NCBI GenBank assembly: GCA_034520945.1
Contig: JAXHNB010000001.1
Coordinates: 256,001 to 320,000 of the forward strand
From: Trueperaceae bacterium
GTDB taxonomy: Bacteria > Deinococcota > Deinococci > Deinococcales > Trueperaceae
Reading direction: 5' to 3'
DNA: 64,000 nucleotides
Shown here one piece after another: positions 20,977 through 49,574 of this stretch (the first letter of the stretch is position 1; each line of letters opens with the position of its first letter). A program made the position numbers and the translations under genes. The notes beneath the pieces were generated by a model that ran no database searches, was not told where the DNA came from, and was given only the letters and a program-made list of their open reading frames with translations.

Positions 20977-21009
20977 CCTGTCCCGCGACGACGAACGAAA
21001 GGACCACGA

Positions 21010-23611: not shown

Positions 23612-23616
23612 CGCGT

Positions 23617-28532: not shown

Positions 28533-28570
28533 GGAAACCTCCTCACACAAAGGGTTCGTTCATTCCCGTC

Positions 28571-28576
28571 AGGCTA
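28571..28576 (-). promoter_or_regulatory. Probable -10 box of the NAD operon
   Basis: TAGCCT on the minus strand ~40 nt upstream of the pncA ATG. Confidence 0.4.
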
Positions 28577-28605
28577 CCGCGCGACCGTCCTCCAGCGCGT
28601 TTCGC

Positions 28606-28992
28606 TCATCGCGGCGGCGTGGGCGGGTCGTCCTCGCCCTCGGGCGCGTCGAAGTCGCCGTCGGTGCGATCGTACTTCCCCTTCAGCTCGTCGATGCCGG
28701 TGCGTTCCCATAGCGACACGCCGTCGTAGTAGGCGGCGCGGCCCAGCACGTGGGCGGCCACCGGCGCCGTCAGCAGCAGGAACAGGAATACCAGCAGCGC
28801 CTTGGTGGTGGTCGCGGTGGCGCCGAACAGTACGGCGGTGGCGGCCAGGATCAGGCCCGCCCCCAGCGTGCCGGCCTTGGTGGTGGCGTGCATGCGCATG
28901 AACAGGTCGGGGAAGCGGACGGCGCCCAGCGCGGAGACCAGCACGAAGAAGGTCCCGAGCACGAGAAGCAGGATGGCCAATGCCTCAGTCAC
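28606..28992 (-). CDS. mrpG: Mrp Na+/H+ antiporter subunit G (copy 1)
   Basis: RFPDLFMRMHATTKAGTLG, TAPVAAH. Confidence 0.92.
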   Translation of the reverse strand: MTEALAILLLVLGTFFVLVSALGAVRFPDLFMRMHATTKAGTLGAGLILAATAVLFGATATTTKALLVFLFLLLTAPVAAHVLGRAAYYDGVSLWERTGIDELKGKYDRTDGDFDAPEGEDDPPTPPR

Positions 28993-29284
28993 GGTCGGAC
29001 CTCTGTCGCTCGATGAAGCGCGCGAACGCGATCGTGCCCAGGAAGGAGATAAGCGCCAGCGCGATGGCGGCGTCCAACAGCACGGCGGTCCGCGTGGCGA
29101 TGGCGACCAGGGCGATGACCGACACCGCCATCAGGCCGATCATGTCCAGCGCCATCACGCGGTCGGGCAGGCTGGGACCGCGGATCACGCGGTAGAGGGC
29201 CAGCGCGATCGACACCGCGACGCCCGTCAACGCCAGGTAGGCCGTCACGTCCAGCAGGGCGAAGGACGGGTCGAACAGGATCAC
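28985..29284 (-). CDS. mrpF: Mrp antiporter subunit F (copy 1)
   Basis: GPSLPDRVMALD, SFLGTIAFARF. Confidence 0.92.
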   Translation of the reverse strand: MILFDPSFALLDVTAYLALTGVAVSIALALYRVIRGPSLPDRVMALDMIGLMAVSVIALVAIATRTAVLLDAAIALALISFLGTIAFARFIERQRSDRD

Positions 29285-29754
29285 CGGAACACCTCCAGGA
29301 TGCGGCGTTCGAAGCTCGACTTGATGTCACGCACCAACCGCTCCGGGTCGTCCGCGAACATGGCGTGTACGTAGAGGCAGCTCTTGTCCGCGGCCACGTC
29401 GATCGAGAGGGTGCCGGGCGTGAGCGAGATCAGGTTGGCCAGCAGCGTGATCTGCGCGTCGGTGGTCAGGTCCAGCGGGACCGCGATCACGGCCGGCTGA
29501 GCACGCAGGCGCGGGCGGAGCACGTCCACCGCGACGCGCACGCTGGACAGGGCCAACTCGCGCAGGAAGAACAGGAACAGGCCCACGACCCGCACGAAGC
29601 GCACGGCGTAGCGCCGGTCGCCCAGCGCCCCGCCGACGAAGTGCAGGACCACCATGCCGACCCCGAAGCCGATCACGAGGTTCACCTCGGACAGCGATCC
29701 GGTGGCGAACGCCCACATGAACGCCAGCACCAGGTTCAGGCCGAACAGGCTCAT
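29281..29754 (-). CDS. mrpE: Mrp antiporter subunit E (copy 1)
   Basis: LLANLISLTPGTLSIDV, LYVHAM. Confidence 0.92.
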   Translation of the reverse strand: MSLFGLNLVLAFMWAFATGSLSEVNLVIGFGVGMVVLHFVGGALGDRRYAVRFVRVVGLFLFFLRELALSSVRVAVDVLRPRLRAQPAVIAVPLDLTTDAQITLLANLISLTPGTLSIDVAADKSCLYVHAMFADDPERLVRDIKSSFERRILEVFR

Positions 29755-31268
29755 GGCGCCGCCTCCAGGAACGCTTGGGCGGCCTCGTCGCCGAGCACGG
29801 CGCGGACGTAGCCTTGCGGGTTCATCAGTTCGTCCCCCGCGGCTTGGGACAGCGCCAGGAACGGCCCGCTCCAGAACCCGATCAGCAGGGTCACCGCGGC
29901 CAACCCCGCGACCGGCGCGATCATCGCCCACGGCGGGCGCGGGCCCACCTCGCGCCCCTCCGGGGCGGGCTTCCAGAACGCGGCCTGCCAGATCTTGGTC
30001 ATGGAGTAGATGGTCAGCAGGCCCACCACCAGCGCCACCGCCACCAGGGCCCAGTTGCCGCTCTCGACCCCCGCGAGCAACACGGCCAGCTTGGCCCAGA
30101 ACCCCGACAGCGGCGGGAAGCCGGCCAGCGAGAAGGCCGGCACCAGGAACAACGCCGCCAGCAACGGCCGGTGCCGGTACAGCCCGCCCAAGCGGTCGAG
30201 CTCGAAGCTGCCGCCGGCGTGCCGCGCCAGGCCCGACACGAAGAACAGGTTCGCCTTGACGATGATGTGGTGCACCAGGTAGAACACCGCCCCCGCCAGG
30301 GCGAACGGCGTGTACAGCGCCAGTCCCATGATCATGTAGCCGATCTGGCTGATGATGTGAAACGACAGGATCTTGCGGAACTCGTTCTGCGCGGCGGCGC
30401 CCAACACGCCGGTCAGCATGGTGAACCCCGCCAGCCACGCCAGGACCCCGTGCGTCCACCCCACGTCCTGCGTGAACAACAGCGTGAACGCCCGCATCAG
30501 CGCGTACACGCCGACCTTGGTGAGCATGCCGGCGAAGATCGCCGACACCGCCACCGGCGGGGTGTGGTACGAGGCCGGCAACCAGAAGAACAGCGGGAAG
30601 ATCGCCGCCTTGATCCCGAACGCCACCAGGAACAACATCGCCAGCACCGTGGCCAGCGCGTCCGGGACGTGGTGCAACGCCCCGGCCAGGTCGGCCATGT
30701 TCAGAGTGCCGGTCGCGCCGTAGGTGAGGCCGATCGCGGCGAGGAACAACAGCGACGACACCAGGTTCACCGCGACGTACTTGAGGCCGCCCTCCAGCTG
30801 CGCGCGCCGATTGCCGAGCGTCAACAGCGCGAACGACGCGATCAGCAGCACCTCGAACCAGACGTACATGTTGAACAGGTCGCCGGTGAGAAAGGCGCCG
30901 TTGATGCCCGCGAGGAGCACCTGGAACAGCGGGTGGTACCCCAGCGCCTCGCGGGCCGGATCGATGTCGCGGAGCGCGTACACGGCCGTCGCGAACGCCA
31001 TCACCCCGCTGATGGCCGTCATGATGGCGGACAGGTGGTCGGCCACCAGGCTGATGCCGAACGGCGCGGGCCAGCCCCCCGCCTGCATCACCTGGATGCC
31101 GTCCTGCGACACGCGCGCCAGCAGCGCCAGCGTCAGCAGCAGCAACGCCGCGCTGGCCCCGGTCGAGATCCAGCGTTGGGCACTGCGGCGGCCGTACAGC
31201 GCGAAGCCCAGGGCGGCCGCCGCCAGCGGAAGGGCGACGGGGGAGACCAGCAGCCAGTTCACGGCCAC
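29751..31268 (-). CDS. mrpD: Mrp antiporter subunit D (copy 1)
   Basis: GGWPAPFGI, TGDLFNMYVWFEV, FFWLPASY, LTKVGVY, GFPPLSGFWAK. Confidence 0.94.
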   Translation of the reverse strand: MAVNWLLVSPVALPLAAAALGFALYGRRSAQRWISTGASAALLLLTLALLARVSQDGIQVMQAGGWPAPFGISLVADHLSAIMTAISGVMAFATAVYALRDIDPAREALGYHPLFQVLLAGINGAFLTGDLFNMYVWFEVLLIASFALLTLGNRRAQLEGGLKYVAVNLVSSLLFLAAIGLTYGATGTLNMADLAGALHHVPDALATVLAMLFLVAFGIKAAIFPLFFWLPASYHTPPVAVSAIFAGMLTKVGVYALMRAFTLLFTQDVGWTHGVLAWLAGFTMLTGVLGAAAQNEFRKILSFHIISQIGYMIMGLALYTPFALAGAVFYLVHHIIVKANLFFVSGLARHAGGSFELDRLGGLYRHRPLLAALFLVPAFSLAGFPPLSGFWAKLAVLLAGVESGNWALVAVALVVGLLTIYSMTKIWQAAFWKPAPEGREVGPRPPWAMIAPVAGLAAVTLLIGFWSGPFLALSQAAGDELMNPQGYVRAVLGDEAAQAFLEAAP

Positions 31269-31666
31269 GTCGCGTCCTCGTCCTCTTCGGGTCCGTCCAG
31301 GCCAGGCACCGGCCGTGGGTCGGCCATGCGTTCCGCCATGCGTTCGGTCTTGACCGTGCCGAGTCGCTCGTAGGTCCGCAGCAGCAGCACCAGCGTGAAC
31401 ACGGTGAGCCCGAAGCTGATCACGATCGCGGTGAGGATCAATGCCTGCGGCAGCGCGTTGGCGGCCCCGTCGGGGGGGACGGACGCGCCCGCGGGCACCA
31501 ACGGCGGCACCTCTTTTGTCAGGCGGCCCAGCACGAAGATCGCGACGTTCACCGAGCCGGACATCAGGATGAGCCCGAACACGAAGCGCAGCATGTTGCG
31601 TTGCATCACCAGGTACAGGCCGGAGGCGAAGAGCGCCCCGACCACGATCGCGACGGGGACCTCCAT
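31259..31666 (-). CDS. mrpC: Mrp antiporter subunit C (copy 1)
   Basis: LPQALILTAIVISFG. Confidence 0.93.
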   Translation of the reverse strand: MEVPVAIVVGALFASGLYLVMQRNMLRFVFGLILMSGSVNVAIFVLGRLTKEVPPLVPAGASVPPDGAANALPQALILTAIVISFGLTVFTLVLLLRTYERLGTVKTERMAERMADPRPVPGLDGPEEDEDATWP

Positions 31667-32076
31667 CAGTGTTCCTCCAACGCGAACAACATGGTGAGCA
31701 CCACCCCGATCACCACCAGGTACACCCCGACGTCGAACAACAGCGGCGTGCTGAGCTTGAGTTCCAACCCGCCCAGGTCGCGGATCCACCACAGCCCCGT
31801 CAGGAACTCCCGGCCGGCCAGGGCGGCCAGCAGGCCCGCCCCCGCGGCGGCGGAGAGCCCGAGGCCGATCACCGCTTGCGGCGTCACCCGAAGCAGCTGG
31901 GCGGCCGCCGGGGCGCCGTAGGCGATGGCGTACAAGGCCAATGCCGCCGCCGCCACGAGCCCGCCGATGAAGCCGCCGCCCGGCAGGTCGTGCCCGCGGA
32001 GGAGCAAGAACACCGAAAGCAAGAGCAGAACCGTGATCAGCAGGCGCGTGGCCGTCCGGAGGATCATGCTGTTCAT
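31666..32076 (-). CDS. mrpB: Mrp antiporter subunit B (copy 1)
   Basis: [25 protein letters not shown]. Confidence 0.93.
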
Positions 32077-34535
32077 GGCGTGCCCCCCTCCTCGGGCGGA
32101 TCCGACCGTTCGGAGGGGTCGCCCGGGCCCTCCCCGTCTCCGGCGTCGCCGTCGGGGTCGCGGCGGCCCGCCGGCATCGGTGCGGCCGCCGCGCGCGAGG
32201 ACGCCAGGCTCCGGAACGGTCCTGGGGCGGCGCTCGGGGCGTCGGGATGCGGACGGCTCCGGGCGCGCTGCAGCAGGGAGAACACCCCCGTGGCGGCCAC
32301 GGCCAGCACCGTGATCTCGCCGAGCGTGTCCAACGCGCGGAAGTCGACCAGGATCACGTTCACGATGTTTCGGCCGTGGGCGGCGGGGTAGCTCTGCTGC
32401 TCGAAGTAGGTCGTGAGGGTGGGGTCGAACGGCGTCGACAGCACCGCCAGCATCAGGGTGGTCAGCAGGATGCCGCCCGTCACCGCCACCACCCCGGCCA
32501 GGGCGCGCACGCCGTCCCGGACCGGCTCGCGCAGCAAGGCGTGCGGGAGCCGCACCAGCACCAGCGCCACGATGATCACCACCAGCGTCTCGACCAGGAA
32601 CTGCGTGATGGCCAGGTCGGGGGCGGCGAACAGCACGAACACGAATGCGATGCCGAACCCGACCACCCCCAGCGCCGTGATCGCCTCCAGGCGCGAGTGG
32701 GCGCGGACCACCGCCAGCGCCGCCACCACCGTGATCAGCAGGAACAGGTACTCGTACACCGTGCCGCCGGTGAATGGCGGGGCGATGCGGAGTCCGCCCT
32801 TCACCGCCAGCGTGAGCGCGGTCAGGCCGAACGCGAAGGAGAGGATGATCGTGAGGTAGTGCCGCAGGTCGTTCGACTGCAGCACCCGCGTCTGCCACTG
32901 CGCCAGGCGCACCAGTCCCCCCATGGTGTGTTCGTAAGCCTGCGCCGGGCCGAACGATCGCTCGCCGTACCGCCTGCGGAGCATGAGGTGTACGGCCCGC
33001 CAACGCCAGGTGAGAACGGCCCCCAACAGGAGCGTCACCGCCGACAGGCCCAGGGCGGGGGTGAGGCCATGCCACAGGTAGATCGACACCCCGGTCGCAG
33101 CGCCGTGCACCGCGCCGGCGGCCGGCGCCAGCAGACCGTCCTGCACCAGGGCAGGCGCCACCCCGAACACGAGTCCCAGACCGGCCAGCGTCATCGGGCC
33201 CGCCGTCATCGACAGCGGCGCCTCGTGGGGCGCCTTGGGGGCGCGTGGCGTGCCGCCGGCGAAGGGGCGCCACGCCACCAGCACTGTGATCACCACCATC
33301 GCGGCGTTGGCCGCGACCAGGACGGCCAACGGCAGTGGCTGCGACAGGAGCGACTCGTAGACGAGTTCCTTGCCGACGAAGCCGAGCATGGGCAGGATCC
33401 CCGCCGCACTGAGGCCGGCCGCCAGCGCGATGGTCCACGTCACCGGCATCAGGCGCCCCACCCCGGACAACTCGGTGACGTCCCGCGTGCCGGCCTCGTG
33501 ATCCAGGCTTCCGGCCACCATGAACAGCGGCGCCTTGTACAGCGCGTGCGCCAGCATGTACACCACCATGGCGGTGGCGGCGTAGCGGGTGTCGATGCCG
33601 ATCAGCAGCACGAGGGTGCCCAACGCGATCAGCGTCGAGTAGGCCAGCAACCGTTTGGCGTCGCGTTGCAGCAGCGCCAGCACCGCCGCCGCCACCACGG
33701 TGGCTGCGCCCGCCAGCACCAACAGCCAGGTCCACGCCGCGGTGCCGCCCAACGCCGGAGCGGTGCGGGCCAACAGGTACACGCCCGCTTTGACCATGGT
33801 GGCGCTGTGCAGGTAGGCGGACACCGGCGTGGGGGCCGCCATGGCGTTGGGCAGCCAGAAGTGGAACGGGAACTGCGCCGACTTGGTGAACGCGCCGGCG
33901 GCGACCAGTGCCAGCATGGGCAGGTACCACCCCGAGGCGTGCAGGAGCGCTGGATCGGCCAGGATCTCGGAGATGCGGAAGGTGCCGGCGGCGGCGCCCA
34001 TCATCAGGAAGCCTGCCAGCATGGCCAGCCCCCCGGCCGCGGTCACCAGCATGGCCTGCAGCGCGTTGGCGCGGCTGCCGGCGTCCTCGTGGCCGTAGCC
34101 GATCAGGAAGTAGGAGGTGAAGCTGGTCAACTCCCAGAACACGAACAGCGTGATCAGGTCGTCGGCCAGGACGACGCCCAGCATGGCGCCCATGAAGGCG
34201 AACAGCAGCAGGAAAAAGCGTGGCAACTGCCGGTCGCCGCGCAGGTACCCCCCGGCGTACACGGTGATCACCGTGCCGATCCCCGTGATCATCAGCGCGA
34301 ACAAAAGCGACAGGCCGTCCAGGCGGAAGGCCGCGTCGACCCCGAGTTGGGGCACCCACGTCACGCTCTGCACCAGCGCACCGCCGTCGCGCACGGCCGG
34401 CGACAGCGCCAGGAAGTAGGCGGTCAGCCCTCCGGGCAATAGGGCCAGGACCCAGCCGGCGCGGTCGGCCAGCGGCCGGGTCAGGACCGGCGCGGCCAAC
34501 CCGGCGGCGAACGCGGCCAGAACGGCGATCAGCAT
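32073..34535 (-). CDS. mrpA: Mrp antiporter subunit A (copy 1)
   Basis: [67 protein letters not shown]. Confidence 0.95.
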
Positions 34536-34790
34536 GGCGGCACCCCGGTCGCCTCCCGGGGGGCACGCGGCGGTGCGCCGGCGGGCCTGCGGGCGTCAGG
34601 GGGAACGGTCGTACGGGCCACGGCGGGTCCGTGCGGCCTGCTCATCGATCATGCCTCCTCGGCGCCGGCCCAGGGGGCGGCTGGGTGCGAACATCGGGAC
34701 GCGAACGCGGATCGATCCGAAGCGGCCCAGGGCCGACCGCGGACCGCGTCCGCCCTGCGGGCGGCGGTTCCGCGCGCGTGCGTGACGCCG

Positions 34791-34796
34791 ATTGTA
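34791..34796 (-). promoter_or_regulatory. Probable -10 box of the mrp operon, giving a ~250-nt leader
   Basis: TACAAT on the minus strand within otherwise very GC-rich DNA. Confidence 0.45.
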
Positions 34797-34879
34797 TACC
34801 GGGGGCGCGTCCCCCTGGGCATCCCGCCCGGCATGCGGTCGGCACGGGCGGCGTCTGGAGGCCGTCCGTGCGGGCGCCG

Positions 34880-36670
34880 CTACCGTGCGACGCCGGTGGG
34901 TTCCGCTTCGGGCTGCAGGTAGGCGAGGACGCCGCCGGCCCGGTACAGCGCCCGGTCGTACGCCGGCGGCGGCGCGGCTTCGAAGGCGTGACCGTCGATC
35001 CAGACGCGGCCCGCGTCCGGGTCCACGCGCACCACGCTGTCGGGTGCGACGCGCTGGAACGCGTCGGGCGCCGCCAGGGTCAGCACGGGCAGCCCTTCGT
35101 CGCGGGCGCCCGCGAGGTAGACCGGCGCCACGCCGCGTGCCACCACGGCCTGCACGCCGGCTGCGCGCAGGGCCCGCACCGAGGAGGCGCGGTTGCTGCC
35201 GACCCCGAACACCCCGTCGGCCAGCACCACCCCGCCGTCCAGCGCGTCCAGCACCTGCGGACGCGCCGATTCGGGCAGGAGGTGGTGGAACAGCAGGCGG
35301 CGCAGCACGGCCGGGTCCCCGTCCGCGCTGGTGCCGACGCCGGGCACCGCCGAGGGCGTCAGGTCGTCGGTGGTGACGGTGCCGTGCAGCAGCAACGCAT
35401 TGCCGTGGCGCGGCCGTTGCAGGCCGGGTCGGGACCGTGATGGCGCACAGGCGCCCGCCTCGGTGCCGCGCCCGCCGGCGCCCGTCGCGCCGAGCCGGCC
35501 CGTGCGGGCCGCCCGGCCCGCCGTCCGTCCCGAGGCCAACAGGATCTCGGCGTCCGCTGCGCCCATGCGGCCCGCCGCGTTGCGGTTGCCGGTCGTGACC
35601 GCTCGGGCGCCGGGGCCCAGACGGCCGGGGCCGAAGCCGAAGCAGGGGCCGCAGCCCGGCGGGAGCACGGTGACGCCGGCGCGCACGAGCCGTGCCAGCA
35701 CGCCGGATTCGTCCAGCCGGCGCGCCACCTCGCGCGAGGCGGGCGCGACCCAGGCCGGCACGCGCGACCTGGGCCCCAGCGCGTCGGCGAAGGCGGCGAT
35801 CTCCTCGACCGTCCCCCCGGAGCACGTCCCCACGAACACCTGGTCCACGCGGTCCCCCGCCAGGTCGTCCAGTGCCACCACGTCGGAGGCGCTTCCGCCC
35901 CGCGCCACCCGGGGCGTGATCCGGTCCAGGTCCAGACGCAACGCGGCGAACGTGCCCGCCTCCCCCGCGGGCGTGGCGGTCCGCGCGTCCGGCGTGAACA
36001 CGGCGGTGATCGCCGTGGCCTCGGGGGCGGCGTTGGCCAGCACCGCCCGCTCCGAGGCGCTCAGCGACCCTACGCCGTCGCCGAAGAACTCCAGCGCGCG
36101 GCCACAGGCGACCGGAAGGCCCGTCCCGTCGTCGCGGAGGCGGGACAGCAGCGTCAACATGGCGTCCCGCGCGCTGACGCCCGGCGCCAGGCGTCCGCGC
36201 AGCTCCACCCCGACGGTGTGCGGCACCACCAGCGGCAGGTGTCCCGTGTGCATGCAGGCGGCGAACGTGGTCGGCTGAGCGGCGAACGCCGCCGCCCCGA
36301 ACGCGCCCAGGGTGGGTGCGTGCGAGTCGTTGCCGACCACCACGTCGCCGGGGCGCACGTAGCCGGCGGCGGGCAGGACGTGGTGCTGGATGCCCTCCCG
36401 CGCCAGCAGGGTGGCGTCGTACGTTCCTACGAACGCATCCCGCTCGTGCAGGAGCCGCACGGCGCGTTCGCGCTCCTCGCCCTGGTAGGTGCCCGGGTCG
36501 TAGGTGTGGTCGTGCACCAGCACCAGCGGACTGGCGGCGCGCGTCGTCCCCAACGCCTGCAGTGGCGCGCGCAAGGCCGGCGTGGTCCAGTCGTCGGTGA
36601 CCAGCAGATCGATGGCGCGCCGCACCGGCGTGCCCGCCGGGGCGCCCAGCAGGCGCTCGATGGCCGTCAC
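34880..36670 (-). CDS. Aconitase-family (de)hydratase, LeuC-like large and LeuD-like swivel domains fused (copy 1)
   Basis: VHDH, GIQHHV, GNDSH, VFVGTCSGG, PGCGPC (three Fe-S cysteines), TGNRN; C-terminal TTDDLTP and FGVGSNR..ALRAAGVQAVVA. Confidence 0.85.
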   Translation of the reverse strand: MTAIERLLGAPAGTPVRRAIDLLVTDDWTTPALRAPLQALGTTRAASPLVLVHDHTYDPGTYQGEERERAVRLLHERDAFVGTYDATLLAREGIQHHVLPAAGYVRPGDVVVGNDSHAPTLGAFGAAAFAAQPTTFAACMHTGHLPLVVPHTVGVELRGRLAPGVSARDAMLTLLSRLRDDGTGLPVACGRALEFFGDGVGSLSASERAVLANAAPEATAITAVFTPDARTATPAGEAGTFAALRLDLDRITPRVARGGSASDVVALDDLAGDRVDQVFVGTCSGGTVEEIAAFADALGPRSRVPAWVAPASREVARRLDESGVLARLVRAGVTVLPPGCGPCFGFGPGRLGPGARAVTTGNRNAAGRMGAADAEILLASGRTAGRAARTGRLGATGAGGRGTEAGACAPSRSRPGLQRPRHGNALLLHGTVTTDDLTPSAVPGVGTSADGDPAVLRRLLFHHLLPESARPQVLDALDGGVVLADGVFGVGSNRASSVRALRAAGVQAVVARGVAPVYLAGARDEGLPVLTLAAPDAFQRVAPDSVVRVDPDAGRVWIDGHAFEAAPPPAYDRALYRAGGVLAYLQPEAEPTGVAR

Positions 36671-36689
36671 GGGTCGCTCCGGGCGCGGA

Positions 36690-37997
36690 TCACGAACGAG
36701 CGCCGGCCTCGAAGCAGTAGCGGGGCGCATCGAAGCGCCGGGCCAGAGCGATCACGTCGTGGCGGACCCGTTCGATGGCGCGGCGGCCGGTGAGCACGTC
36801 GGCGATGGCGCCCGATAGGTCCGCCATTTCGCCCTCGCCCATGCCGAGGCGGGTGATCTCGGGCACGCCCAGGCGCAGGCCCTTTTGCCCGAGGGTGGGG
36901 ATCAGGTTGACGTTGCCGATCAGGTGTGCGTCGTGCAGGCGCTCCACCGCCTCGTCGGGCGGCATCTGCGGCCGCACGTCCAGCCATACCTGGTGCGACG
37001 CCGTGCGCTGGGCGCCGCCCTGTACGGCGAGCCCGTGTCCGGCCAGCCCCTCCGCCAGCGCCCGGGCATTGGCGAGCATCTGCCGCGCGTAGTCGGCGCC
37101 GAACGCCCGCATCTCGGCCAGGGTCACCGCCAGGGCCGCCACGTGATGGAGATGGAAGTTGGAGACGTGACCGGGGAAGATCGTCGCCTCGACCGCCTCC
37201 ATCAGCTCGTCCCGGTCGGTGAGGATCATGCCCTTCTGCGGGCCTGGCAGCGACTTGTGGCAGCTGCCCGACAGCACGTCGGCCCCCTCGCGGAGCGGGT
37301 CCTGAAAGGTGCCGCCCAGGATCAGGCCGAACACCTGGGACGCGTCGTACACGATGATGGTGTCATTGCCCGCCAGCCGGCGCAGCTCCCGCACCGGGTG
37401 GGGGAACAGCACCATCGACGCGTCCAGGTAGATCACGTCCGGCGGTGCCTCGGCGAAGGCGTGCGCGCACGCGCCCAAGTCCACCACCGCGTTCGTGCGG
37501 TCGAAGGGCAGCAGGTGCCGGTCGGCGCCGATGCGGTCGGCCACGCTGCGGGCCGCGAAGTGGCCGCCGTCCTCCATCGCCAGGTGATAGAACACGTCGC
37601 CCGGCCCGACCAGCGCGTCGATCACGATGTTGGTGCAGTTCTCGCCCGACAGTGGGCGTACGTTGGCGTGGCGGACGCCGAACGCCTCGCGCGCCAGGTC
37701 CTTGGCCGACTCCTCCAGCGTGGCCAGGTGCTTGCCGCCGACGTAGCGCCACTGCGGGTTCTGGAACAGGTAGCGGTGCGAGGCGTCGCTGGCCAGCACG
37801 CGCCGGGCCAACGGGCTGAGCACGTTCTCGGTGGGGACCAGGCCGATGCAGTCGCGGCGGTAGGCGTCGTGCTGGTCCACCGCGGCCAGCACGTCCGCCA
37901 GTTGGGGCACGGCATGGTCCGCCTGGGGCGTGGCCGGGGCGTGATGCCGGGCGTGGGGTGGAGCGAGGGGGGTCGAAGAGGTGGGGGGTCGGGTCAT
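36690..37997 (-). CDS. PLP-dependent SHMT-fold enzyme, non-canonical (archaeal-SHMT / threonine-transaldolase-like) (copy 1)
   Basis: LVPTENVLSP, NVRPLSG, GGHF, YDASQ, SGSCHKSLPGPQKG (PLP Lys), GLRLG; lacks YAEG. Confidence 0.82.
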   Translation of the reverse strand: MTRPPTSSTPLAPPHARHHAPATPQADHAVPQLADVLAAVDQHDAYRRDCIGLVPTENVLSPLARRVLASDASHRYLFQNPQWRYVGGKHLATLEESAKDLAREAFGVRHANVRPLSGENCTNIVIDALVGPGDVFYHLAMEDGGHFAARSVADRIGADRHLLPFDRTNAVVDLGACAHAFAEAPPDVIYLDASMVLFPHPVRELRRLAGNDTIIVYDASQVFGLILGGTFQDPLREGADVLSGSCHKSLPGPQKGMILTDRDELMEAVEATIFPGHVSNFHLHHVAALAVTLAEMRAFGADYARQMLANARALAEGLAGHGLAVQGGAQRTASHQVWLDVRPQMPPDEAVERLHDAHLIGNVNLIPTLGQKGLRLGVPEITRLGMGEGEMADLSGAIADVLTGRRAIERVRHDVIALARRFDAPRYCFEAGARS

Positions 37998-38319
37998 GAC
38001 GGACACCTGCCAGGGGCTGGGGGCGAGACGGTTGCCGTCGGCGGGGTGCCTGGACGGCGTGGCCTTCGGTGCTGGGCCGATGCCGCGCGGGTGCCTTCAT
38101 TCCGAAAGTGGAAGCCGCGCCCGCTCGACACTGGGCCTAAGGAAACCAAAGATTGCGACGAATTGCAAGCGATCCGAAAGCGACCCGGGGCCCGCCGTCA
38201 CCCGAGTCGAGACGCGGCCGAGGGGGCGTGGACGCCCTGGCGCGGGTCCTGCCCGCGCGAGGACGGCCGGGACGTTCGCCCGCCCGCAGGTTCGGTAGGC
38301 TGACCGGCAAGGAGGCCCC

Positions 38320-38637
38320 ATGGACGTACCCGAGGGCGCACAGGAACAGATGGAGCTGCTGTACGGACGCGAAGCGTGGACGTTGCTGCACGCCTGGATC
38401 GGCGAGGGCGCCGTCCTCGCCGTGGTCGCCGTCGCGGCCGACGGCGTGTTCGACCAGGAGGAGGACGCGTTCAACGTGGACGGCGTACGCCTCGACTACC
38501 TGCAGTTGACGGAGGAGGAGGACGGGGCCTGGTCGTCCAGCGTCGACGCCAGCGCCGAGCTCGGTGACGTGTTTGGCGAGTTGGTGCACGCCTTCGAGCA
38601 TCGCGAACACAGCGGGAGCGAGCCGCTCGAGTCCTGA
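38320..38637 (+). CDS. Small acidic hypothetical protein (copy 1)
   Basis: TAGGCT -10 and AAGGAGG SD before ATG; GC3-biased codons. Confidence 0.65.
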   Translation: MDVPEGAQEQMELLYGREAWTLLHAWIGEGAVLAVVAVAADGVFDQEEDAFNVDGVRLDYLQLTEEEDGAWSSSVDASAELGDVFGELVHAFEHREHSGSEPLES

Positions 38638-38663
38638 AGCAGGGGCGCGCCCTGGGGGTGGCG

Positions 38664-39200
38664 ATGCCTGGGCGACCGCTCCGTGCGTTCGCGCATGGAC
38701 TGTGCCGCAGTGCTGTCGCGCTGGCGTGGGGGGTGCTCCTCGCCGCCTGCGCGCCCGGGCCCACCTCGGGGGTGGTCGCCACGGCGCAGGTCGGTGACGC
38801 GGCCGACGGCGCTAGGGAGGGGGTTTCCCCCCGGGCCGAGCTCGTTGCGCTGGCGAACCGGGCCCGTAGCGAACCGCGCGCCTGCGGCGACAGCTGGTTC
38901 GACGCGGCCGAACCGCTGCAGATCGACCCCACCCTGATGGACGTCGCGCAGGCGCACAGCGAGGATCAGCGCGCCTTGGGCGTGGCCACCCACGTCGGGC
39001 CCGAGGGGCGCGGTCCGTCCGGCCGCGTGGAGGACAGCGTGTACGAATGGTCGCGCGTGGGGGAGAACGTGGCCTCGGGGTACGACTCGGCGCAGAGCCT
39101 CGTCCGGGCGGTCCTGGACAGCGAGGGGCATTGCGCCAACCTCATGGACCCGGACTTCCGCCACACCGGCGTGGGCTACTCCGGCGGCTACTGGACGCAG
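38664..39200 (+). pseudogene. CAP-domain lipoprotein truncated at the duplication junction (loses VFATPR-stop and reads through into copy 2)
   Basis: LLAAC lipobox, AQAHSEDQ, GENVASG, SEGHCANLM, YWTQ and then divergence from the intact copy. Confidence 0.75.
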
Positions 39201-39536
39201 CACGACCCCGACCAAGCCCCAGACGAGCCAGTTCGGCCGGGCCCTTGCGCCCTGGCGGCCCGATCCGTGCGGCGTACCCGCCGGCGGGATCTCCACGCCG
39301 CCTGCCGGAACGTCGGGCGTCCGGTCGACCACCGGCGTGCCCGCCACCCAGTGCAGATAGCCCGCGTCGCCCGGCGTCAGCTCGTCGCTCCAGGCGTACG
39401 CGTGGGACTCCTCGACCTCGAAGGTGCGGCCGGTCCGGTCCGAGCGCCACTCCTGTATGTGCGCCCCTCCCTCCGCGGTGCGGTCCGACCGCACGTAGCG
39501 AACCGCCCAGACGTCGGGATCACGTCGCGAACTCAT
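39201..39536 (-). pseudogene. Copy 2 of the small leaderless protein, 3' end cut by the junction
   Basis: Same N-terminus (MSSRRDPDVW...) but reads LVGVVLRPV... into the antisense of the CAP gene. Confidence 0.5.
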
Positions 39537-39834
39537 CCCCCGAGTGTAGCGCCGTGCGCGATCCTCGCCGGTCCCTGCGCCAGCCTCGACGACGCGGCCC
39601 ATCACACTAAGACCACCGCCAGCACGCTCGCGCCCGCCTGCCAGGCGATGTAGCGCGCGTGCATGGCATCCAGCGGGTAAAGCGTCCGACATCGCCGCCC
39701 GCCCCCGGTCGTTACCCTACGAAACGTAATTGCACGCCGGCACGCTCCGCGCTCATCGGTCGACCATCGAGGCGCCCGAGGCCCACCCGGGCCCCATGCC
39801 GTGCCGCGTGCCCCTCGGAAGGGAGGAGTTTTCC

Positions 39835-41214
39835 ATGACGCTCGCATCCATGCGAACGACCCGCATCCCAACTCTCCGCCTCCTCGCAGCCCTACTGCTG
39901 AGCGTGGCGGTGACCGGCCTCGCCCACGCCCAGCAAGGGGGCGAGTCCGAAGACGTCGTCGCCCTCGAGGCCGTGGCCGACGGCTTCAACTCGCCCGTGC
40001 AGCTGGCGTCGCCGCCCGATGACCCGCGCCGCTTCGTGGTCGACCGTGTCGGCGCGATCTACCTGCTGCACGAGGATGGCAGCGTGGCCGACACGCCGTT
40101 CCTGGACCTCCGCGACGAGATCGTCGAGCTGCAGGACGGCTTCGACGAGCGTGGCCTGCTGGGCCTGGCGTTCCACCCCGACTTCAGCGAGAACGGGCGC
40201 TTCTTCGTGTACTACAGCGCTCCGCTGCGGGACGCCGCGCCGGACGACTGGGACCACACCGCCTACGTCTCCGAGTTCAAGACCGCCGAGCCCGAGGAGG
40301 ACGACGCCCCGCGCGGCTCGACCGACACGGCCGACCCGAACACCGAGCGTGTGCTGATGGCCATCGATCAGCCCAACTTCAACCACGACGGCGGCACCCT
40401 GGACTTCGGGCCCGACGGGTACCTCTACATTGGGCTGGGCGACGGCGGCAACGCCGATGACGCCGGCCTTGGACACCAGCCGATGGGCCACGGGCAGGAC
40501 ACCACCTCGCTGCTCGGCAACATCCTGCGGATCGACGTGGACCGCGGCTGGCCCGGCTACGCCGTGCCCGAAGACAACCCGTTCGTGGGTGACCCGACCC
40601 GGCCGAACGAGATCTACTCCTGGGGTTGGCGCAACCCCTGGCGCATGAGCTTCGACGCCGCCGGCAACGGCGACCTGTACGTCGGCACCAACGGGCAGAA
40701 CCTGTGGGAGGCCGTCTACCGCATCCGTGAACCCGGCAACGCCGGCTGGAACATCCTCGAAGGCACGCACTGCTTCGATCCGGACGCCCCGAACACCACG
40801 CCGGCCAGCACGGCCTGCGACACGGTCGGCCCGCAGGGCGAGCCGCTGAAGCTGCCGGTCATCGAGTACCCGCATCCCGGCAACCAAGGCGACTACGAGC
40901 ATGCCGGCATCTCCGTCGTCGGCGGCTACGTCTACCGCGGCGACGACATCCCGGCGCTGCAGGGCCGCTACGTGTTCGGCGACTGGAGCCTCGGCTTCGG
41001 CGAGCCGCAGGGTCAGCTGTTCGTCAGCACGCCGAATGCGTCCCACACCGAGGGCGGCACCTGGGCGCTCGAGCGGTTGGACGTCCTGGACAGCTACATC
41101 CTCGGGTTCGGGCAGGACAGTGAGAACGAGCTGTACGTGCTGACCACGGAGAGCACCGGCCCCACCGGCTCCACCGGCGCCGTGCACAAGCTGGTCCCGG
41201 CGGACGCCGAGTAA
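39835..41214 (+). CDS. GSDH-family beta-propeller (copy 2)
   Basis: As copy 1, with two amino-acid changes (TAAP>TAEP, STNT>STDT). Confidence 0.85.
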   Translation: MTLASMRTTRIPTLRLLAALLLSVAVTGLAHAQQGGESEDVVALEAVADGFNSPVQLASPPDDPRRFVVDRVGAIYLLHEDGSVADTPFLDLRDEIVELQDGFDERGLLGLAFHPDFSENGRFFVYYSAPLRDAAPDDWDHTAYVSEFKTAEPEEDDAPRGSTDTADPNTERVLMAIDQPNFNHDGGTLDFGPDGYLYIGLGDGGNADDAGLGHQPMGHGQDTTSLLGNILRIDVDRGWPGYAVPEDNPFVGDPTRPNEIYSWGWRNPWRMSFDAAGNGDLYVGTNGQNLWEAVYRIREPGNAGWNILEGTHCFDPDAPNTTPASTACDTVGPQGEPLKLPVIEYPHPGNQGDYEHAGISVVGGYVYRGDDIPALQGRYVFGDWSLGFGEPQGQLFVSTPNASHTEGGTWALERLDVLDSYILGFGQDSENELYVLTTESTGPTGSTGAVHKLVPADAE

Positions 41215-41299
41215 CCCAGCGATCCCGCGTTCGGCACCCCGCCCGCATCTTGCGGCGGGGTGCCGACCTGTCCCGCGACGACGAACGAAAGGACCACGA

Positions 41300-43054
41300 A
41301 TGGACGGATGCACCTTCGCTCGCCTGCGCAGGTGGGGGATCGTGGCTGCGGCCGCGATCCTCGCCTTCGCGGGCGCCCAGTCGCCCCCGAACGTCGAGGC
41401 GGAGCTGGTCGTCGACGGCCTCACCTCCCCCGTGCAGCTGACCGCCCCACCGGATGACCCCCGCCGCTTCGTGGTCGAACAGACCGGTCAGATCCGCATC
41501 CTCCAGGAGGACGGCACCCTGGCGGACACCCCGTTCCTGGATCTCAGCGACCGCATCGTGACGTTGCGCGACGGCTTCGAGGAACGCGGCCTGTTGGGCC
41601 TGGCGTTCCACCCCGAATTCGCGGACAACGGACGGTTCTACGTGCACTACAGCGCGCCGCTCCGGGAGCGCGCGCCCGACGGCTGGGACCACACCGCCCG
41701 CATCAGCGAGTTCCGGGTGCCGGCCGACTCGCCCGAGGAGGCCGACCCGAACTCCGAACGCGTGCTACTCCGCGTCGATCATCCCAACCGCAAGACCAAC
41801 GCCGGCGCGCTGGCGTTCGGGCCCGACGGCTACCTCTACGCCGCGATCGGCGAGGGTGGCGGCGCGCACGGCATCGGCGAGGTCGCCTTCGGGGCGCTGG
41901 AAGTGCCCGAACGCGGCAACGTCTGGGACGCGCTGGCGCAGGACGTGCACACGCCCTACGGCAAGATCCTGCGATTGGACGTGGATCACGGTTGGCCCGG
42001 CTACGCCGTGCCTGAGTCCAACCCGTTCGTCGGCACGCCCGGGATGGACGAGATCTACGCCTGGGGGTTCCGCAACCACTACCGCATGGCGTTCGATCAC
42101 GAGGGTGACGGCGCGCTCTACGTCGCCGCCGTCAGCGAGTCGATCTCGGAAGCGGTGTATCGCGTCGATGGGCCCGGCAACTACGGTTGGCCCATCCGCG
42201 AGGGCACGCATTGTTACGACCGCCAGGCACCGCTCGATCCGCCCGAGGACTGTTCTCGCTATGGGCCCGAGGGGTGGCGCATTCACGATCCCGTGGTGGC
42301 GTACTACAACGTGAACGTCGCCGAGTCCGACATCGACGCCGAGCCGCGCGGCACCGCCGTGGTCGGGGCGCAGGTGTACCGCGGTGACGACATCCCCGAG
42401 CTGCGCGGACGCCTGCTCGTCGCCGACTACTCGCAGAACCCCCAGGAACCGAGCGGCACGGTGTTCGTGGCTGGGCCCGAGGGCGACGTGAGCGCGACCT
42501 GGCCGCTACGGCAGCTCGTGCAGGTCGACGCCCGCGCGCAAGGTCTGGGCGTGGACGTGGAGGGAGAGGCGTACCTGCTGACCCGTGAAGCGTTCGCCCC
42601 CAGCGGCGATACGGGACGCATCTACCGGCTCGTGCCAGCCAGCGACGACGGCGACGAGGCAGGAGCGGGCGCGTCCGATGGGCAGGACGCCGCCTCGGCC
42701 GACGCCGCCGCAGCGGGATTCTCGTTCACCGCCGCCCAGGCTGAGCAGGGCTCGAGCGTCTACGACGAGCAATGCCAGAGCTGCCACGCAGACGACCTTC
42801 GGGCGCAGGGGCCGTTCCCGCCCCTGACCGGTTCCGAATTCTTCGGCTCCTGGGAGGGCCGTCCCGTCAGCGAGATGTACGCCTTCATCCGAGGCAACAT
42901 GCCGCTGGGATCGGCCGGCTCGCTGTCCGATGAAGCGTATGCCGAGGTGATGGCCTACTGGTTGCAACGGCACGGCTACCAGGCCGGCGAGGCGCCCCTT
43001 CCTGGCGACCCCGCCGCCCTGCCGGAGGACGTACCGGTCGAGGACCGCCGTTGA
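41300..43054 (+). CDS. GSDH-family beta-propeller + cytochrome c (copy 2)
   Basis: As copy 1; CQSCH retained. Confidence 0.85.
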   Translation: MDGCTFARLRRWGIVAAAAILAFAGAQSPPNVEAELVVDGLTSPVQLTAPPDDPRRFVVEQTGQIRILQEDGTLADTPFLDLSDRIVTLRDGFEERGLLGLAFHPEFADNGRFYVHYSAPLRERAPDGWDHTARISEFRVPADSPEEADPNSERVLLRVDHPNRKTNAGALAFGPDGYLYAAIGEGGGAHGIGEVAFGALEVPERGNVWDALAQDVHTPYGKILRLDVDHGWPGYAVPESNPFVGTPGMDEIYAWGFRNHYRMAFDHEGDGALYVAAVSESISEAVYRVDGPGNYGWPIREGTHCYDRQAPLDPPEDCSRYGPEGWRIHDPVVAYYNVNVAESDIDAEPRGTAVVGAQVYRGDDIPELRGRLLVADYSQNPQEPSGTVFVAGPEGDVSATWPLRQLVQVDARAQGLGVDVEGEAYLLTREAFAPSGDTGRIYRLVPASDDGDEAGAGASDGQDAASADAAAAGFSFTAAQAEQGSSVYDEQCQSCHADDLRAQGPFPPLTGSEFFGSWEGRPVSEMYAFIRGNMPLGSAGSLSDEAYAEVMAYWLQRHGYQAGEAPLPGDPAALPEDVPVEDRR

Positions 43055-43097
43055 CGCGCCTCGCGCGCCGGCCGTAAGGCCGGGCCGTAGGCGATGC

Positions 43098-43901
43098 CTA
43101 CGGCGTGTCCAGCACCGTCACGTCGTCCCCCACGCGCAGCGTCCCCACCCCGTCGTGCAGCAGGTTCTGCCCGAACAGGACGTTGCCGCCGCGCTTGCGG
43201 GTCCGGTTCAGCGTCCGCAGCGGTTCCGGCCCCGCCTCCAGCGTGTCGGGATGCAGGGTCGGGACCACGCAGCGTGCGCAGGGCTTGGCGACCCGGAACG
43301 CCACCTCGCCGATCCGGATTCGGGTCCAGCCGTCCTCCGCGTAGGGGGCCGCGCCCGACGCCACCAGGTTGGGGCGAAAGCGCACCATCTCCAGCGGCGC
43401 GTCCAGCTGGCGGTTCAGCTCGTCCAACGAGGCGCTGCCGATCAGGTGGAACGGATAGCCGTCCGCGAAGGCGACCCGGTCGTCCGCGTGGGCGTAGGCG
43501 GGGTCGACCCGGCGCGCGCCGTCCGGCGGGAAGACCACCAGTCGGTGCCCCTCGCCCAACACCCGGCCGATCCATTCGTCTGCGCTTCGGCCGCACGACC
43601 AGGCCGTCACGGGGTCGTTCCACACGGTCACGGCGACCTCGCGTGCCGGCGTGGGCGGGCGCGGCAGGTCCAAGTCCGGCAGGCCCGGCGCGGACAATCG
43701 CAGTTGCTCGGCATGAAGCGTGGGCGTGATGCGGCCCAGGCGGGGGTCCTCGCGTTGGCTGCGAAAGCGGCCGCGTCGGTCCACTACCATCCAGCGCCGG
43801 TCGTCCCGTAGGCCGGTGCGCACCACCTCCGCCGCGTTCAGCGGTACGGCGCGCCCCGACTTCAGCGGGTAGGCGTACAGGGCGCTCAGCCGCACCGTCA
43901 C
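43098..43901 (-). CDS. MOSC-domain protein (copy 2)
   Basis: Translation identical to copy 1. Confidence 0.88.
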   Translation of the reverse strand: MTVRLSALYAYPLKSGRAVPLNAAEVVRTGLRDDRRWMVVDRRGRFRSQREDPRLGRITPTLHAEQLRLSAPGLPDLDLPRPPTPAREVAVTVWNDPVTAWSCGRSADEWIGRVLGEGHRLVVFPPDGARRVDPAYAHADDRVAFADGYPFHLIGSASLDELNRQLDAPLEMVRFRPNLVASGAAPYAEDGWTRIRIGEVAFRVAKPCARCVVPTLHPDTLEAGPEPLRTLNRTRKRGGNVLFGQNLLHDGVGTLRVGDDVTVLDTP

Positions 43902-43906
43902 CGCGT

Positions 43907-45475
43907 TCAGCCGGCCGACGCGGCTGCGTCGGCGTTGGTGCGCCGGACGGTCTCGTCGCGCAGGCGCGCCAGCGCGGGCGAGAGCGAGACGTGGTAGCGG
44001 TGCGGGCGCAGGATGCGGCGCACGCCGGGGTAGTGCCGCGCCAGGTCGTTGCGGCACCGCTCGCGCAGCGTCTCCAGCGGCGCCTCGGCCGCGGTGCGGG
44101 CGCCGTCCTGGAAAGCGGGGCTCAGCAACGGTTCGACATCGGAGACGTCGCTGCGCGCGAGGGTGCGGGTGGTGTCGACCTCGCGGGGGTGATGGGCCAC
44201 CAGGTCGTCGCCGCCGCGGCGGGGGTCCTCGCCTGCGAGGGTGACCAGGTCGACGGTGGCGTTTCCGAGGGCGTCGTACACGCGCCACACGCGCTTGTCG
44301 CCCGGCACCAGCGCCTTCGACGGCGTCTCGGACAGCTTGACGGCCGGCAGCCAGCCGTCATCGCCGCGGATCTGCACCAGCTTGTATACGCCGTCCAGGG
44401 CGGCGTCGCCTTCGGAGGTGATCAGGCGGGTCCCGACGCCGTACGCCAGGCGGGAGAGCAGCCGGCCCGCGTCGACGCCGTACGCGCTGGCCTCCTCCGT
44501 GATCTGCGTGCGGATCTGCCACAGGGTGAACTCGTCCAGCTCGTTGGACAGCACGATGGCGGCGTCCTCGAAGCCGGCGTCGTTCAGCTGGCGGGCCGAC
44601 TGGATCGCCAGGTGCGCCAGGTCGCCCGAGTCCAGCCGCACGCCGATGGGTTCGTGCCCCCGTTGGCGCAGGCGTTCGAAGGTCCGGATCGCGTTGGGGA
44701 TGCCGGAGTCGAGCGTGTCGACGGTATCGACCAGCAGTAGGCAGTCGTCTGGGAACGCCTCGGCGTAGGCGTCGAAGGCGCCGGCCTCGCCCATGCCGAG
44801 CGCCATGAACGCCTGCACCATCGAGTGCGCGTGCGTGCCGGCCGGGCGCGTGCCCAACGCGAACGCCAGGCCCGTGTTCGAGGTGGCGTCGGCCCCGCCG
44901 ATCAGGGCGGCGCGCGAGCCGGCGTGGACGCCGCGCTCGTGCCCGCGCCGCATGCCGAAGTCGATCACGGCGCCGCCGTGCGCCGCTTGCACCAGCCGCG
45001 CCGCCTTCGTCGCGATCAGGGTGGGGTAGTTGAGGTGGTTCAGCAGCGACGTCTCCAGCAGCTGCAGCCCCGCCAGCGGGCCCCGCACGATCGCGATGGG
45101 GGCGCCGGCGTGCACCACGCGCCCCTCCGGCACGGCGGTGACGGTGACGTCCGCCCCGGCGGGGCGGTCCTGCAGCCACGCCAGGAAGTCGTCGTCGAAC
45201 AGGCGCCGCCCGCTACGGCCCGTCACGGCGCGCAGATACGCCAGGTCGCGGCGTTCGAAGCGCGTCCCCTCCAGCCACTCCAGGAACCAGGCCAGCCCGG
45301 CCGTGACGGCGTAGCCGGCCTGATGCCCGCCGTAGTCCGGGTAGGAGCGGAAGAAGTACTCGAACTGGGCCGGGCGCTCGTGCATGCCCTTCCGGAAGTA
45401 CAGCTGGGCCATGGTGAGTTGGTACATGTCGGTGAACAGCGCGCCTTGCGCGGTCCGCCAGTCGGTCTCGTTCAT
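43907..45475 (-). CDS. pncB: Nicotinate phosphoribosyltransferase (copy 2)
   Basis: As copy 1 with one L>R change. Confidence 0.93.
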   Translation of the reverse strand: MNETDWRTAQGALFTDMYQLTMAQLYFRKGMHERPAQFEYFFRSYPDYGGHQAGYAVTAGLAWFLEWLEGTRFERRDLAYLRAVTGRSGRRLFDDDFLAWLQDRPAGADVTVTAVPEGRVVHAGAPIAIVRGPLAGLQLLETSLLNHLNYPTLIATKAARLVQAAHGGAVIDFGMRRGHERGVHAGSRAALIGGADATSNTGLAFALGTRPAGTHAHSMVQAFMALGMGEAGAFDAYAEAFPDDCLLLVDTVDTLDSGIPNAIRTFERLRQRGHEPIGVRLDSGDLAHLAIQSARQLNDAGFEDAAIVLSNELDEFTLWQIRTQITEEASAYGVDAGRLLSRLAYGVGTRLITSEGDAALDGVYKLVQIRGDDGWLPAVKLSETPSKALVPGDKRVWRVYDALGNATVDLVTLAGEDPRRGGDDLVAHHPREVDTTRTLARSDVSDVEPLLSPAFQDGARTAAEAPLETLRERCRNDLARHYPGVRRILRPHRYHVSLSPALARLRDETVRRTNADAAASAG

Positions 45476-48822: not shown

Positions 48823-48895
48823 GGAAACCTCCTCACACAAAGGGTTCGTTCATTCCCGTCAGGCTACCGCGCGACCGTCCTCCAGCGCGTTTCGC

Positions 48896-49282: not shown

Positions 49283-49574
49283 GGTCGGACCTCTGTCGCT
49301 CGATGAAGCGCGCGAACGCGATCGTGCCCAGGAAGGAGATAAGCGCCAGCGCGATGGCGGCGTCCAACAGCACGGCGGTCCGCGTGGCGATGGCGACCAG
49401 GGCGATGACCGACACCGCCATCAGGCCGATCATGTCCAGCGCCATCACGCGGTCGGGCAGGCTGGGACCGCGGATCACGCGGTAGAGGGCCAGCGCGATC
49501 GACACCGCGACGCCCGTCAACGCCAGGTAGGCCGTCACGTCCAGCAGGGCGAAGGACGGGTCGAACAGGATCAC
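49275..49574 (-). CDS. mrpF: Mrp subunit F (copy 2)
   Basis: As copy 1. Confidence 0.92.
   Translation of the reverse strand: MILFDPSFALLDVTAYLALTGVAVSIALALYRVIRGPSLPDRVMALDMIGLMAVSVIALVAIATRTAVLLDAAIALALISFLGTIAFARFIERQRSDRD

Follow-up and report, generated by a model that had tools for sequence, protein, structure and literature searches.

In serine hydroxymethyltransferase (SHMT) the glutamate of the YAEG loop is needed for the folate-dependent step, and SHMT variants without this glutamate retain folate-independent retro-aldol activity. Enzymes of the aconitase family act on a malate-like core, from which they remove the hydroxyl group that is beta to a C-H activated by a carboxylate, and stand-alone LeuCD-like hydratases that have no synthase or dehydrogenase partner exist, among them maleate hydratase and dimethylmalate dehydratase. 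In the beta-hydroxyaspartate cycle the aldolase and dehydratase steps are carried out by BhcC and BhcB, respectively, which are pyridoxal phosphate (PLP) enzymes of other folds. In the part of their article drawn on here, Jones et al. describe two loops, both former folate-binding regions, as a hallmark of transaldolase clusters (PMC10495429). Excerpts from two articles describe AcnX (aconitase X) as an iron-sulphur (Fe-S) enzyme of the aconitase superfamily that dehydrates a beta-hydroxy-alpha-amino acid (PMC5144071, PMC8184944). Here we analyse two adjacent genes, one for an SHMT-fold PLP enzyme and one for a single-chain aconitase-family Fe-S protein (hereafter the PLP enzyme and the dehydratase), in a 64,000-nucleotide stretch of DNA (the window) from a Trueperaceae bacterium (assembly GCA_034520945.1, contig JAXHNB010000001.1, positions 256,001 to 320,000). 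Both proteins come from textbook superfamilies, yet they are a distinct and strictly linked pair of subfamilies that fits none of the functions known in either.

The PLP enzyme and the dehydratase

The pair lies on the minus strand of a 3.47 Mb genome (10 contigs, 97% complete, 5% contamination) of ~72% GC. The gene for the PLP enzyme spans 36690..37910 if it starts, as in the public gene call, at the GTG at 37910 (406 aa); its open reading frame (ORF) extends over 36690..38006 and 438 aa in the longest form, with ATG 37997 or GTG 38006 as alternative starts. A 19-bp intergenic spacer (36671..36689) follows, with a GGAG ribosome-binding site 7-8 nt ahead of the start of the dehydratase gene. 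The latter occupies 34880..36670 (GTG 36670 in the public gene call, 596 aa; longest ORF form 34880..36730, 616 aa) and encodes, in order, LeuC-like domains 1-3, a linker and a LeuD-like domain. An earlier note, made from the sequence alone, had claimed a two-gene unit at 34880..37997, and both minus-strand ORFs and the 19-bp spacer were confirmed. The GC content at third codon positions, 0.93 for the PLP-enzyme ORF and 0.92 for the dehydratase ORF, is typical of real genes at 72% GC. Pfam places the PLP enzyme in SHMT (PF00464, 5e-36) and the second protein in Aconitase (1e-58), and ESM Atlas returned nothing but generic SHMT and aconitase clusters. Neither a sigma-70-like promoter nor a terminator was found for the pair, and an Rfam search of 37700-38700, upstream of it, gave no riboswitch, only a single chance-level match.

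We aligned the PLP enzyme to the structures of M. jannaschii SHMT (4uqv), ObiH (7k34) and a Burkholderia SHMT (4n0w), the first two being its best (1.6e-69) and second-best (1e-51) solved relatives. The Schiff-base Lys (GSCHKS), the GGH His (DGGHF) and the carboxylate-binding Arg (KGLRLG) reported in the earlier note can all be read in the translation and in these alignments, and Y79, H149, D221, K251 and R378 are invariant across 27 aligned sequences. The three replacements it had listed, of the YAEG loop, of SEN by TEN and of DxxH by DASQ, also hold in the alignment to M. jannaschii SHMT, in which HRYLFQNPQWRYVGG stands at the position of HRYAEGLPGKRLYQG, PTEN at that of ASEN and DASQ at that of DGAH. 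Within the clade to which the protein belongs, YAEG has become YLFQ, with Phe for Glu, in 20 of 20 aligned rows; the Gln that takes the place of His after the PLP Asp is invariant in the aligned clade rows, as is a folate/pterin loop, ahead of GLRLG, that is 6 residues shorter than in archaeal SHMT. PGPQKG and FPGHVSNFHLHH are also found in the protein.

The profile scores agree with this picture. On the NCBIfam SHMT model, with a cut-off of 335 bits, the PLP enzyme reaches 270 bits and two further clade members 278-284 bits, while two true archaeal SHMTs found in the same search reach 479-484 bits. With the NCBIfam model for fluorothreonine transaldolase, whose cut-off is 650 bits, the score is 240, the match covering profile positions 6-409 of 609, and the C-terminal domain of that transaldolase is absent; the protein falls below every NCBIfam cut-off. 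A canonical glyA with YAEG, 32% identical to the PLP enzyme, is present elsewhere in the genome. For phylogeny we used FastTree on 53 rows, comprising 15 of the 48 clade clusters, 3 intermediates, 34 of the remaining matches (P0050-P0120) and the genome's own GlyA; in this tree, which is midpoint-rooted only and contains no characterised transaldolase, the clade is monophyletic (SH-like support 99) and nested in a 24-row group, of which 12 rows, one of them our own protein, were inspected and found without exception to lack both the Glu and the loop. The earlier view that the protein is not a canonical SHMT is borne out by the lost Glu and folate loop, by the sub-threshold score and by the separate glyA. 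The PLP enzyme is, as predicted from these features, an SHMT-fold protein that is not an SHMT and would not use folate in the manner of one.

The compact single-chain aconitase of the earlier note, with three Fe-S cysteines and with TDDWTT, GSNRA and NRNAAGR, is likewise present as described. TDDWTT occupies the usual HD site, GSNRA replaces GSSRE, NRNAAGR replaces NRNFxGR and GIQHH replaces GICHQ, in alignments that included the M. jannaschii isopropylmalate isomerase (IPMI) and homoaconitase (HACN) large subunits (4nqy and 4kp2; 4nqy being a solved relative at 5.4e-47). The cluster cysteines are C303, C360 and C363, and these are invariant in 25 aligned sequences together with D74/H75, H116, D135-S136-H137, N233, E237, R383/N384, R388 and S512/R514. 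The pocket motifs fixed in the family are TDDWTTP, GIQHH, GNDSH, AAQPTT and GSNRAS, plus an inserted VPGxGTSSDxDP loop; those that we checked occur in none of the next-best matches, which carry the canonical forms. The best NCBIfam score is 266 bits against a cut-off of 385, and the protein is below the cut-off in all 25 aconitase-family models listed. The pocket is altered while Fe-S and catalytic residues are kept, and canonical leuC/leuD, as well as acnA, are found elsewhere in the genome.

An AlphaFold model of the dehydratase, built from a 19-sequence alignment (mean pLDDT 87.9, pTM 0.89), is confidently predicted to adopt a four-domain aconitase fold, with residues 397-410 forming a disordered linker. 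All four domains superpose on mitochondrial aconitase (TMq 0.75-0.78), and comparison with the M. jannaschii large subunits and with LeuD chains gives TMt values of 0.79-0.84 and 0.80-0.84, respectively. The dehydratase retains the aconitase machinery along with the arginines that bind two carboxylates in relatives, and both proteins are probably active enzymes.

Linkage of the pair and the pathway it may encode

Both proteins belong to small, sharply bounded families. An exhaustive HMMER search of 1.84 billion cluster representatives returned 288 proteins at E <= 1e-30 for the dehydratase, only six of them above 300 bits and the next at 204 bits, and a word-indexed search listed 55 clusters (90% identity) for its family, its own included. 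The PLP clade comprises 48 clusters (90% identity), after which identity falls from 59% to 43%. Among 364 genomes of the phylum Deinococcota the dehydratase occurs in 15, which are 15 of the 128 in the window's family and represent 6 of its 36 genera; it occurs in none of the 236 genomes from five other families of the phylum. The pair-bearing genomes are small (1.8-3.5 Mb). Near-identical DNA is found in salt-pan metagenome runs, parts of it in sediment runs, and small word shares in microbialite runs.

Of the 128 family genomes, those with the PLP enzyme are exactly the 15 that have the dehydratase. The gene for the PLP enzyme lies directly upstream of that for the dehydratase, in the same orientation, in 12 of 12 loci fetched for the 14 other genomes; adjacency in one genome (G051) was established by coordinates, and in another (G061) each gene sits at the end of a different contig. 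The 16 metagenome loci may in part duplicate genome loci. Twelve of them include the 5' end of the dehydratase gene, and in each of these the PLP gene is immediately upstream; the remaining 4 begin inside the dehydratase gene. The neighbourhood check proposed in the earlier note therefore finds the genes linked elsewhere, in the same set of genomes and adjacent at every locus where this is visible, and an objection that they are unlinked outside this genome fails. Flanking genes vary by genus: one group has DegV, Asd and a ComM-like gene, another has MoxR, and the present genome has Mrp and NAD salvage genes. Pfam scans of 54 neighbouring ORFs at 11 loci gave genus-level synteny only and no conserved third gene. 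The pair is inherited as one unit without a third partner. A cysteine-synthase-like gene beside the pair at one locus was considered as such a partner and is not conserved, and a glucose/sorbosone dehydrogenase homologue stands directly beside the pair in one other genome. In the two cluster searches, 14 pairs of matches agree in the size of their longest contig, a putative sign of linkage; one of these is labelled Woesearchaeota.

The pair is probably a self-contained two-enzyme operon that serves a small amino-acid pathway in a few halophilic Trueperaceae-like bacteria. In the pathway that we propose, the first enzyme, a fold-type-I PLP enzyme of SHMT lineage working with neither folate nor pterin, would make or cleave the bond between C-alpha and C-beta in a beta-hydroxy-alpha-amino acid, either as a glycine-dependent aldolase or as an ObiH-like, threonine-type transaldolase, and the second, a [4Fe-4S] (de)hydratase of LeuCD/homoaconitase lineage, would take water off, or add it onto, the same kind of molecule. 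That a folate-independent aldolase or transaldolase is coupled in this way to an Fe-S (de)hydratase on a shared beta-hydroxy-alpha-amino acid has, in our estimate, an even chance of being correct. The dedicated pathway of the earlier note gains from the non-canonical nature of both enzymes and from their strict linkage, whereas the common hydroxy-amino acid, its identity and the direction of flux are parts that we infer.

As to that identity, the retained two-carboxylate arginines, which fit a malate core, make 3-hydroxyaspartate ('3-aminomalate') or a 3-alkyl derivative a candidate, since this is the only beta-hydroxy-alpha-amino acid with such a core. Glycine and glyoxylate (or a 2-oxo acid) would then be interconverted with 3-hydroxyaspartate, which would pass through aminofumarate/iminosuccinate to oxaloacetate and NH3. 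We regard 3-hydroxyaspartate as a tentative and rather unlikely choice of specific substrate. It is doubtful, too, that the pair constitutes a non-homologous beta-hydroxyaspartate route in which glycine and glyoxylate are joined and the resulting 3-hydroxyaspartate is dehydrated to iminosuccinate/oxaloacetate.

Several points weigh against the proposed pathway. Linkage speaks for a shared role and not for a shared substrate, we know of no LeuCD-type enzyme that acts on an amino acid, and our search of the literature found no paper on such an enzyme pairing. Against 3-hydroxyaspartate in particular, loop 1 of the PLP enzyme has gained no conserved basic residue able to bind a second carboxylate, and an acidic residue has been gained instead (SGE). 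In the same genome malate synthase was not found, isocitrate lyase gave only a weak partial match (39.8 bits), no glyoxylate carboligase was over the cut-off and glcD scored 130 bits against a cut-off of 568, leaving no evident source or sink of glyoxylate in an assembly that is 97% complete. Malate synthase is present in 1 of the 15 pair-bearing genomes and in 34 of the 113 others (35 of 128 overall, the 34 including the unpublished G090), a tally that is uninformative because it is confounded by genus, the pair-bearing genera being mostly without malate synthase anyway. Neither a conserved third gene nor a riboswitch nor a metabolic gap was found that would indicate the substrate. Two more specific roles were considered and rejected. 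A link to the synthesis of nicotinamide adenine dinucleotide (NAD), in which iminoaspartate would be supplied to NadA and for which the downstream pncA, nadE and pncB might speak, was set aside because the genome has no NadA match and only a NadB-like match below the cut-off, and because these neighbours are not conserved elsewhere. Nor is there a Ser/Thr dehydratase gap to be filled, as the genome encodes an Fe-S serine dehydratase and also carries four PALP-type Ser/Thr dehydratase-like genes.

The operon might also work without an amino-acid intermediate common to the two enzymes, the Fe-S protein (de)hydrating a usual hydroxy- or unsaturated dicarboxylate, as the maleate, citraconate and dimethylmalate hydratases do, and the PLP enzyme acting on the precursor or product of that step through aldol, decarboxylation or transamination chemistry. 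The stand-alone LeuCD-like hydratases mentioned above make such an arrangement conceivable, TIGR02087 is named for a LeuD/DmdB family, and the carboxylate-binding arginines are kept while no residue ties the dehydratase to an amino group; consecutive steps are nevertheless the best fit to strict linkage without a third gene, and the pocket motifs are unlike those of all next-best relatives, so we consider this explanation improbable. A much plainer one would make the two proteins spare paralogues, a second, folate/pterin-dependent SHMT and a second isopropylmalate/homoaconitate isomerase serving standard C1 and leucine/lysine-type metabolism. It is the one that the Pfam assignments (SHMT and Aconitase) and the nearest solved relatives (M. 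jannaschii SHMT, IPMI and HACN) would suggest, but the catalytic Glu and the folate loop are gone, both proteins are below all curated cut-offs, GSSRE, HD and NRNF are altered, and canonical glyA and leuCD are found elsewhere. Moreover, scans of the window and of neighbouring genes at 11 fetched loci showed neither an isopropylmalate-synthase-like nor a dehydrogenase-like neighbour, and a role as spare paralogues appears very unlikely.

The same scans bear on a specialised-metabolite pathway, in which a threonine transaldolase would make a beta-hydroxy amino-acid building block and the LeuCD-like enzyme would homologate or tailor it. The ObiH-like features of the PLP enzyme are those expected of such a transaldolase, and the known transaldolases treated in the part of PMC10495429 used here are all from natural-product pathways. 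No nonribosomal peptide synthetase (NRPS), polyketide synthase or tailoring gene, however, stands beside the pair, either in the window or in the scanned neighbourhoods of the 11 loci, the neighbours being genus-variable housekeeping genes in small genomes, and this origin seems highly improbable. The absence of nearby leu/lys genes and of an NRPS claimed in the earlier note also stands, in that the window ORFs scanned include no leu/lys partner gene and no NRPS.

Were the proposed pathway to be correct, it would extend LeuCD-type aconitase chemistry to amino acids, providing the first example known of a LeuCD-type Fe-S enzyme that acts on an alpha-amino acid, and would represent a natural folate-independent SHMT-fold aldolase outside natural-product pathways. 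It might also link glycine, a C2 or Cn carbonyl compound and a 2-oxo acid in few steps and, should 3-hydroxyaspartate be the substrate, provide a two-gene C2-assimilation module in halophilic Trueperaceae. Aldolases for beta-hydroxy amino acids are sought as biocatalysts, as the part of PMC10495429 drawn on here relates. The family is tiny, is restricted to uncultured salt-pan, sediment and microbialite bacteria, and would otherwise be annotated simply as 'SHMT' and 'aconitase family protein'.

The tandem repeat and other features of the window

The pair lies within a head-to-tail repeat, with a unit of 20.3 kb, that the earlier note did not mention. Copy 1 of the unit (18916..39200) and copy 2 (39206..59488) are 99.48% identical, with 99 mismatches and 6 gaps, and the unit contains two glucose/sorbosone dehydrogenase genes, pncB, nadE, pncA, the mrp genes, the pair, a 113-codon ORF and a CAP-domain gene. 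Downstream of the pair and on the same strand are mrpA, mrpC, mrpD, mrpE, mrpF and mrpG, then pncA, nadE and pncB. Because the pair is inside the repeat, a second copy of it is found at 55169..58199 (minus strand), with a PLP enzyme (56979..58199) identical in protein sequence to that of copy 1 and an aconitase-family protein (55169..56959) that differs at 6 residues and has an intact frame. Of the 105 differing columns, 52 fall in 31756-32067, between mrpA and mrpC, and the others in a few short clusters.

Whether this is a real duplication or a joining of strains is a question on which the odds are about even, and the reading of the pair itself is unaffected by the answer. We give somewhat under an even chance to an assembly artefact in which two strain variants were joined head to tail. 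Public contigs placed on 38000-40400 come from three runs, two from one salt-pan sample and one from sediment, and among the contigs listed from these runs no piece bridges the junction at 39200/39206. Contigs leave the right end of the unit into its native right flank, and enter its left end from a different, 30-letter flank that agrees, but for one mismatch, with the beginning of contig C7. This contig is a strain variant, ~98% identical, of the region that ends at window position 9845, and it lacks 9846-18908. The clustering of the differences is as expected between strains, run X2 holds both allele sets over 40289-40324 at unequal depth (12.5 and 4.84), and the assembly contains strain-variant contigs and split genes. 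On the other side, the junction carries a short shared stretch, CAGCACGAC, of the kind left by real duplications, and a 71-letter contig of run X1 leading to the right flank has a depth of 13.4, the unit itself having ~25, which is what one would expect were only half of the unit ends to continue into that flank; contigs also drop rare forms, and a missing bridge is no proof of absence.

The public contigs, too, lack 9846-18908, and in them the repeat unit begins straight after position ~9845; in the window this stretch of ~9 kb carries sulfatase, FGE-sulfatase, sugar ABC transporter and ROK regulator genes. A glutamine-dependent NAD synthetase gene at 25778-28497, and likewise in copy 2, is split in two frames, with CN_hydrolase and the start of NAD_synthase in one and the remainder in the other, and ABC permease and solute-binding genes at 14235-17301 are in pieces. 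Split genes of this kind suggest either assembly indel errors or pseudogenes. At the right end of the unit the CAP-domain gene is found at 38568-39653 (+) and 58856-59509 (+); the junction cuts it ~7 codons before its stop, so the copy at the junction reads into unrelated sequence as a chimeric ORF. The two adjacent glucose/sorbosone dehydrogenase paralogues (19440-22764 in copy 1 of the unit and 39730-43054 in copy 2, both +) have segments that are 70-78% identical between them, and the second carries a C-terminal cytochrome c domain. Outside the repeat, a cyclic-di-GMP-II riboswitch at 59632-59716 (+; 67 bits against a gathering score of 53.5) directly precedes a gene (59710-60390) for a CAP-domain protein of the cysteine-rich secretory protein family, and a radical SAM/SPASM-domain protein gene at 5793-7472 (+) adjoins an MFS transporter gene and a DUF1684 gene.

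Comparison with described systems

As judged from sequence, the pair is set apart from SHMT, the fluorothreonine-type transaldolases, LeuCD/HacAB and AcnX, failing the defining features of each that were tested. Archaeal SHMT (M. jannaschii, 4uqv/4bhd) shares with the PLP enzyme its fold, the Schiff-base Lys, the stacking His, the Asp, the carboxylate Arg and the FPGxVSNxHLHH motif, a likeness proposed in the earlier note and seen in the alignment. It differs in having YAEG where the PLP enzyme has YLFQ, DGAH for DASQ, ASEN for PTEN and a pterin loop longer by 6 residues, and on the SHMT model the PLP enzyme falls ~200 bits short of the two true archaeal SHMTs scored (270 compared with 479-484).

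ObiH (7k34) has in common with the PLP enzyme GGHFA, PGPQKG, a short loop 2 and a loop 1 without YAEG, in which F and W occupy matching places, so that the ObiH-like character suggested earlier is upheld for GGHFA, PGPQKG and the short loop. Its catalytic H131, D204 and K234 and its PLP-holding Y55 and R366, as listed in PMC10495429, correspond to H149, D221, K251, Y79 and R378 here, a match that does not discriminate because these residues are common to SHMTs. The differences from ObiH are a shorter loop 1 with a sequence of the clade's own and the Gln in place of His after the PLP Asp. The natural-product context of ObiH, LipK and the fluorothreonine transaldolase (FTase) is absent for the pair, and FTase further possesses the C-terminal domain that the PLP enzyme lacks (240 bits on its model, against 650).

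LeuCD/HacAB of M. jannaschii (4nqy, 4kp1 and 4kp2; LeuD 2pkp and 3vba) share the three Cys, the catalytic residues and the two-carboxylate arginines with the dehydratase. In the latter, however, the large and small subunits are fused, the pocket carries DD, GIQHH, NRNA and GSNRA, and the small domain has the VPGxGTSSDxDP insertion. The partner enzymes of LeuCD/HacAB, a LeuA/AksA-like synthase and a LeuB-like dehydrogenase, are absent from the scanned ORFs of the window and from the scanned neighbours of the 11 fetched loci.

The beta-hydroxyaspartate cycle is known from the part of PMC11323563 drawn on here. In its chemistry, namely a glycine and glyoxylate aldolase step followed by dehydration of 3-hydroxyaspartate, it would resemble the pair, although the proteins encoded in the window are not homologous to BhcC and BhcB and neither matches a Bhc model in the NCBIfam scan. 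AcnX belongs to a different family, to which the dehydratase has a score of 16.1 bits against a cut-off of 31.5 (PF04412) and weak structural matches (TMq 0.42-0.43), but it provides a precedent for an enzyme of the aconitase superfamily that acts on a beta-hydroxy amino acid.

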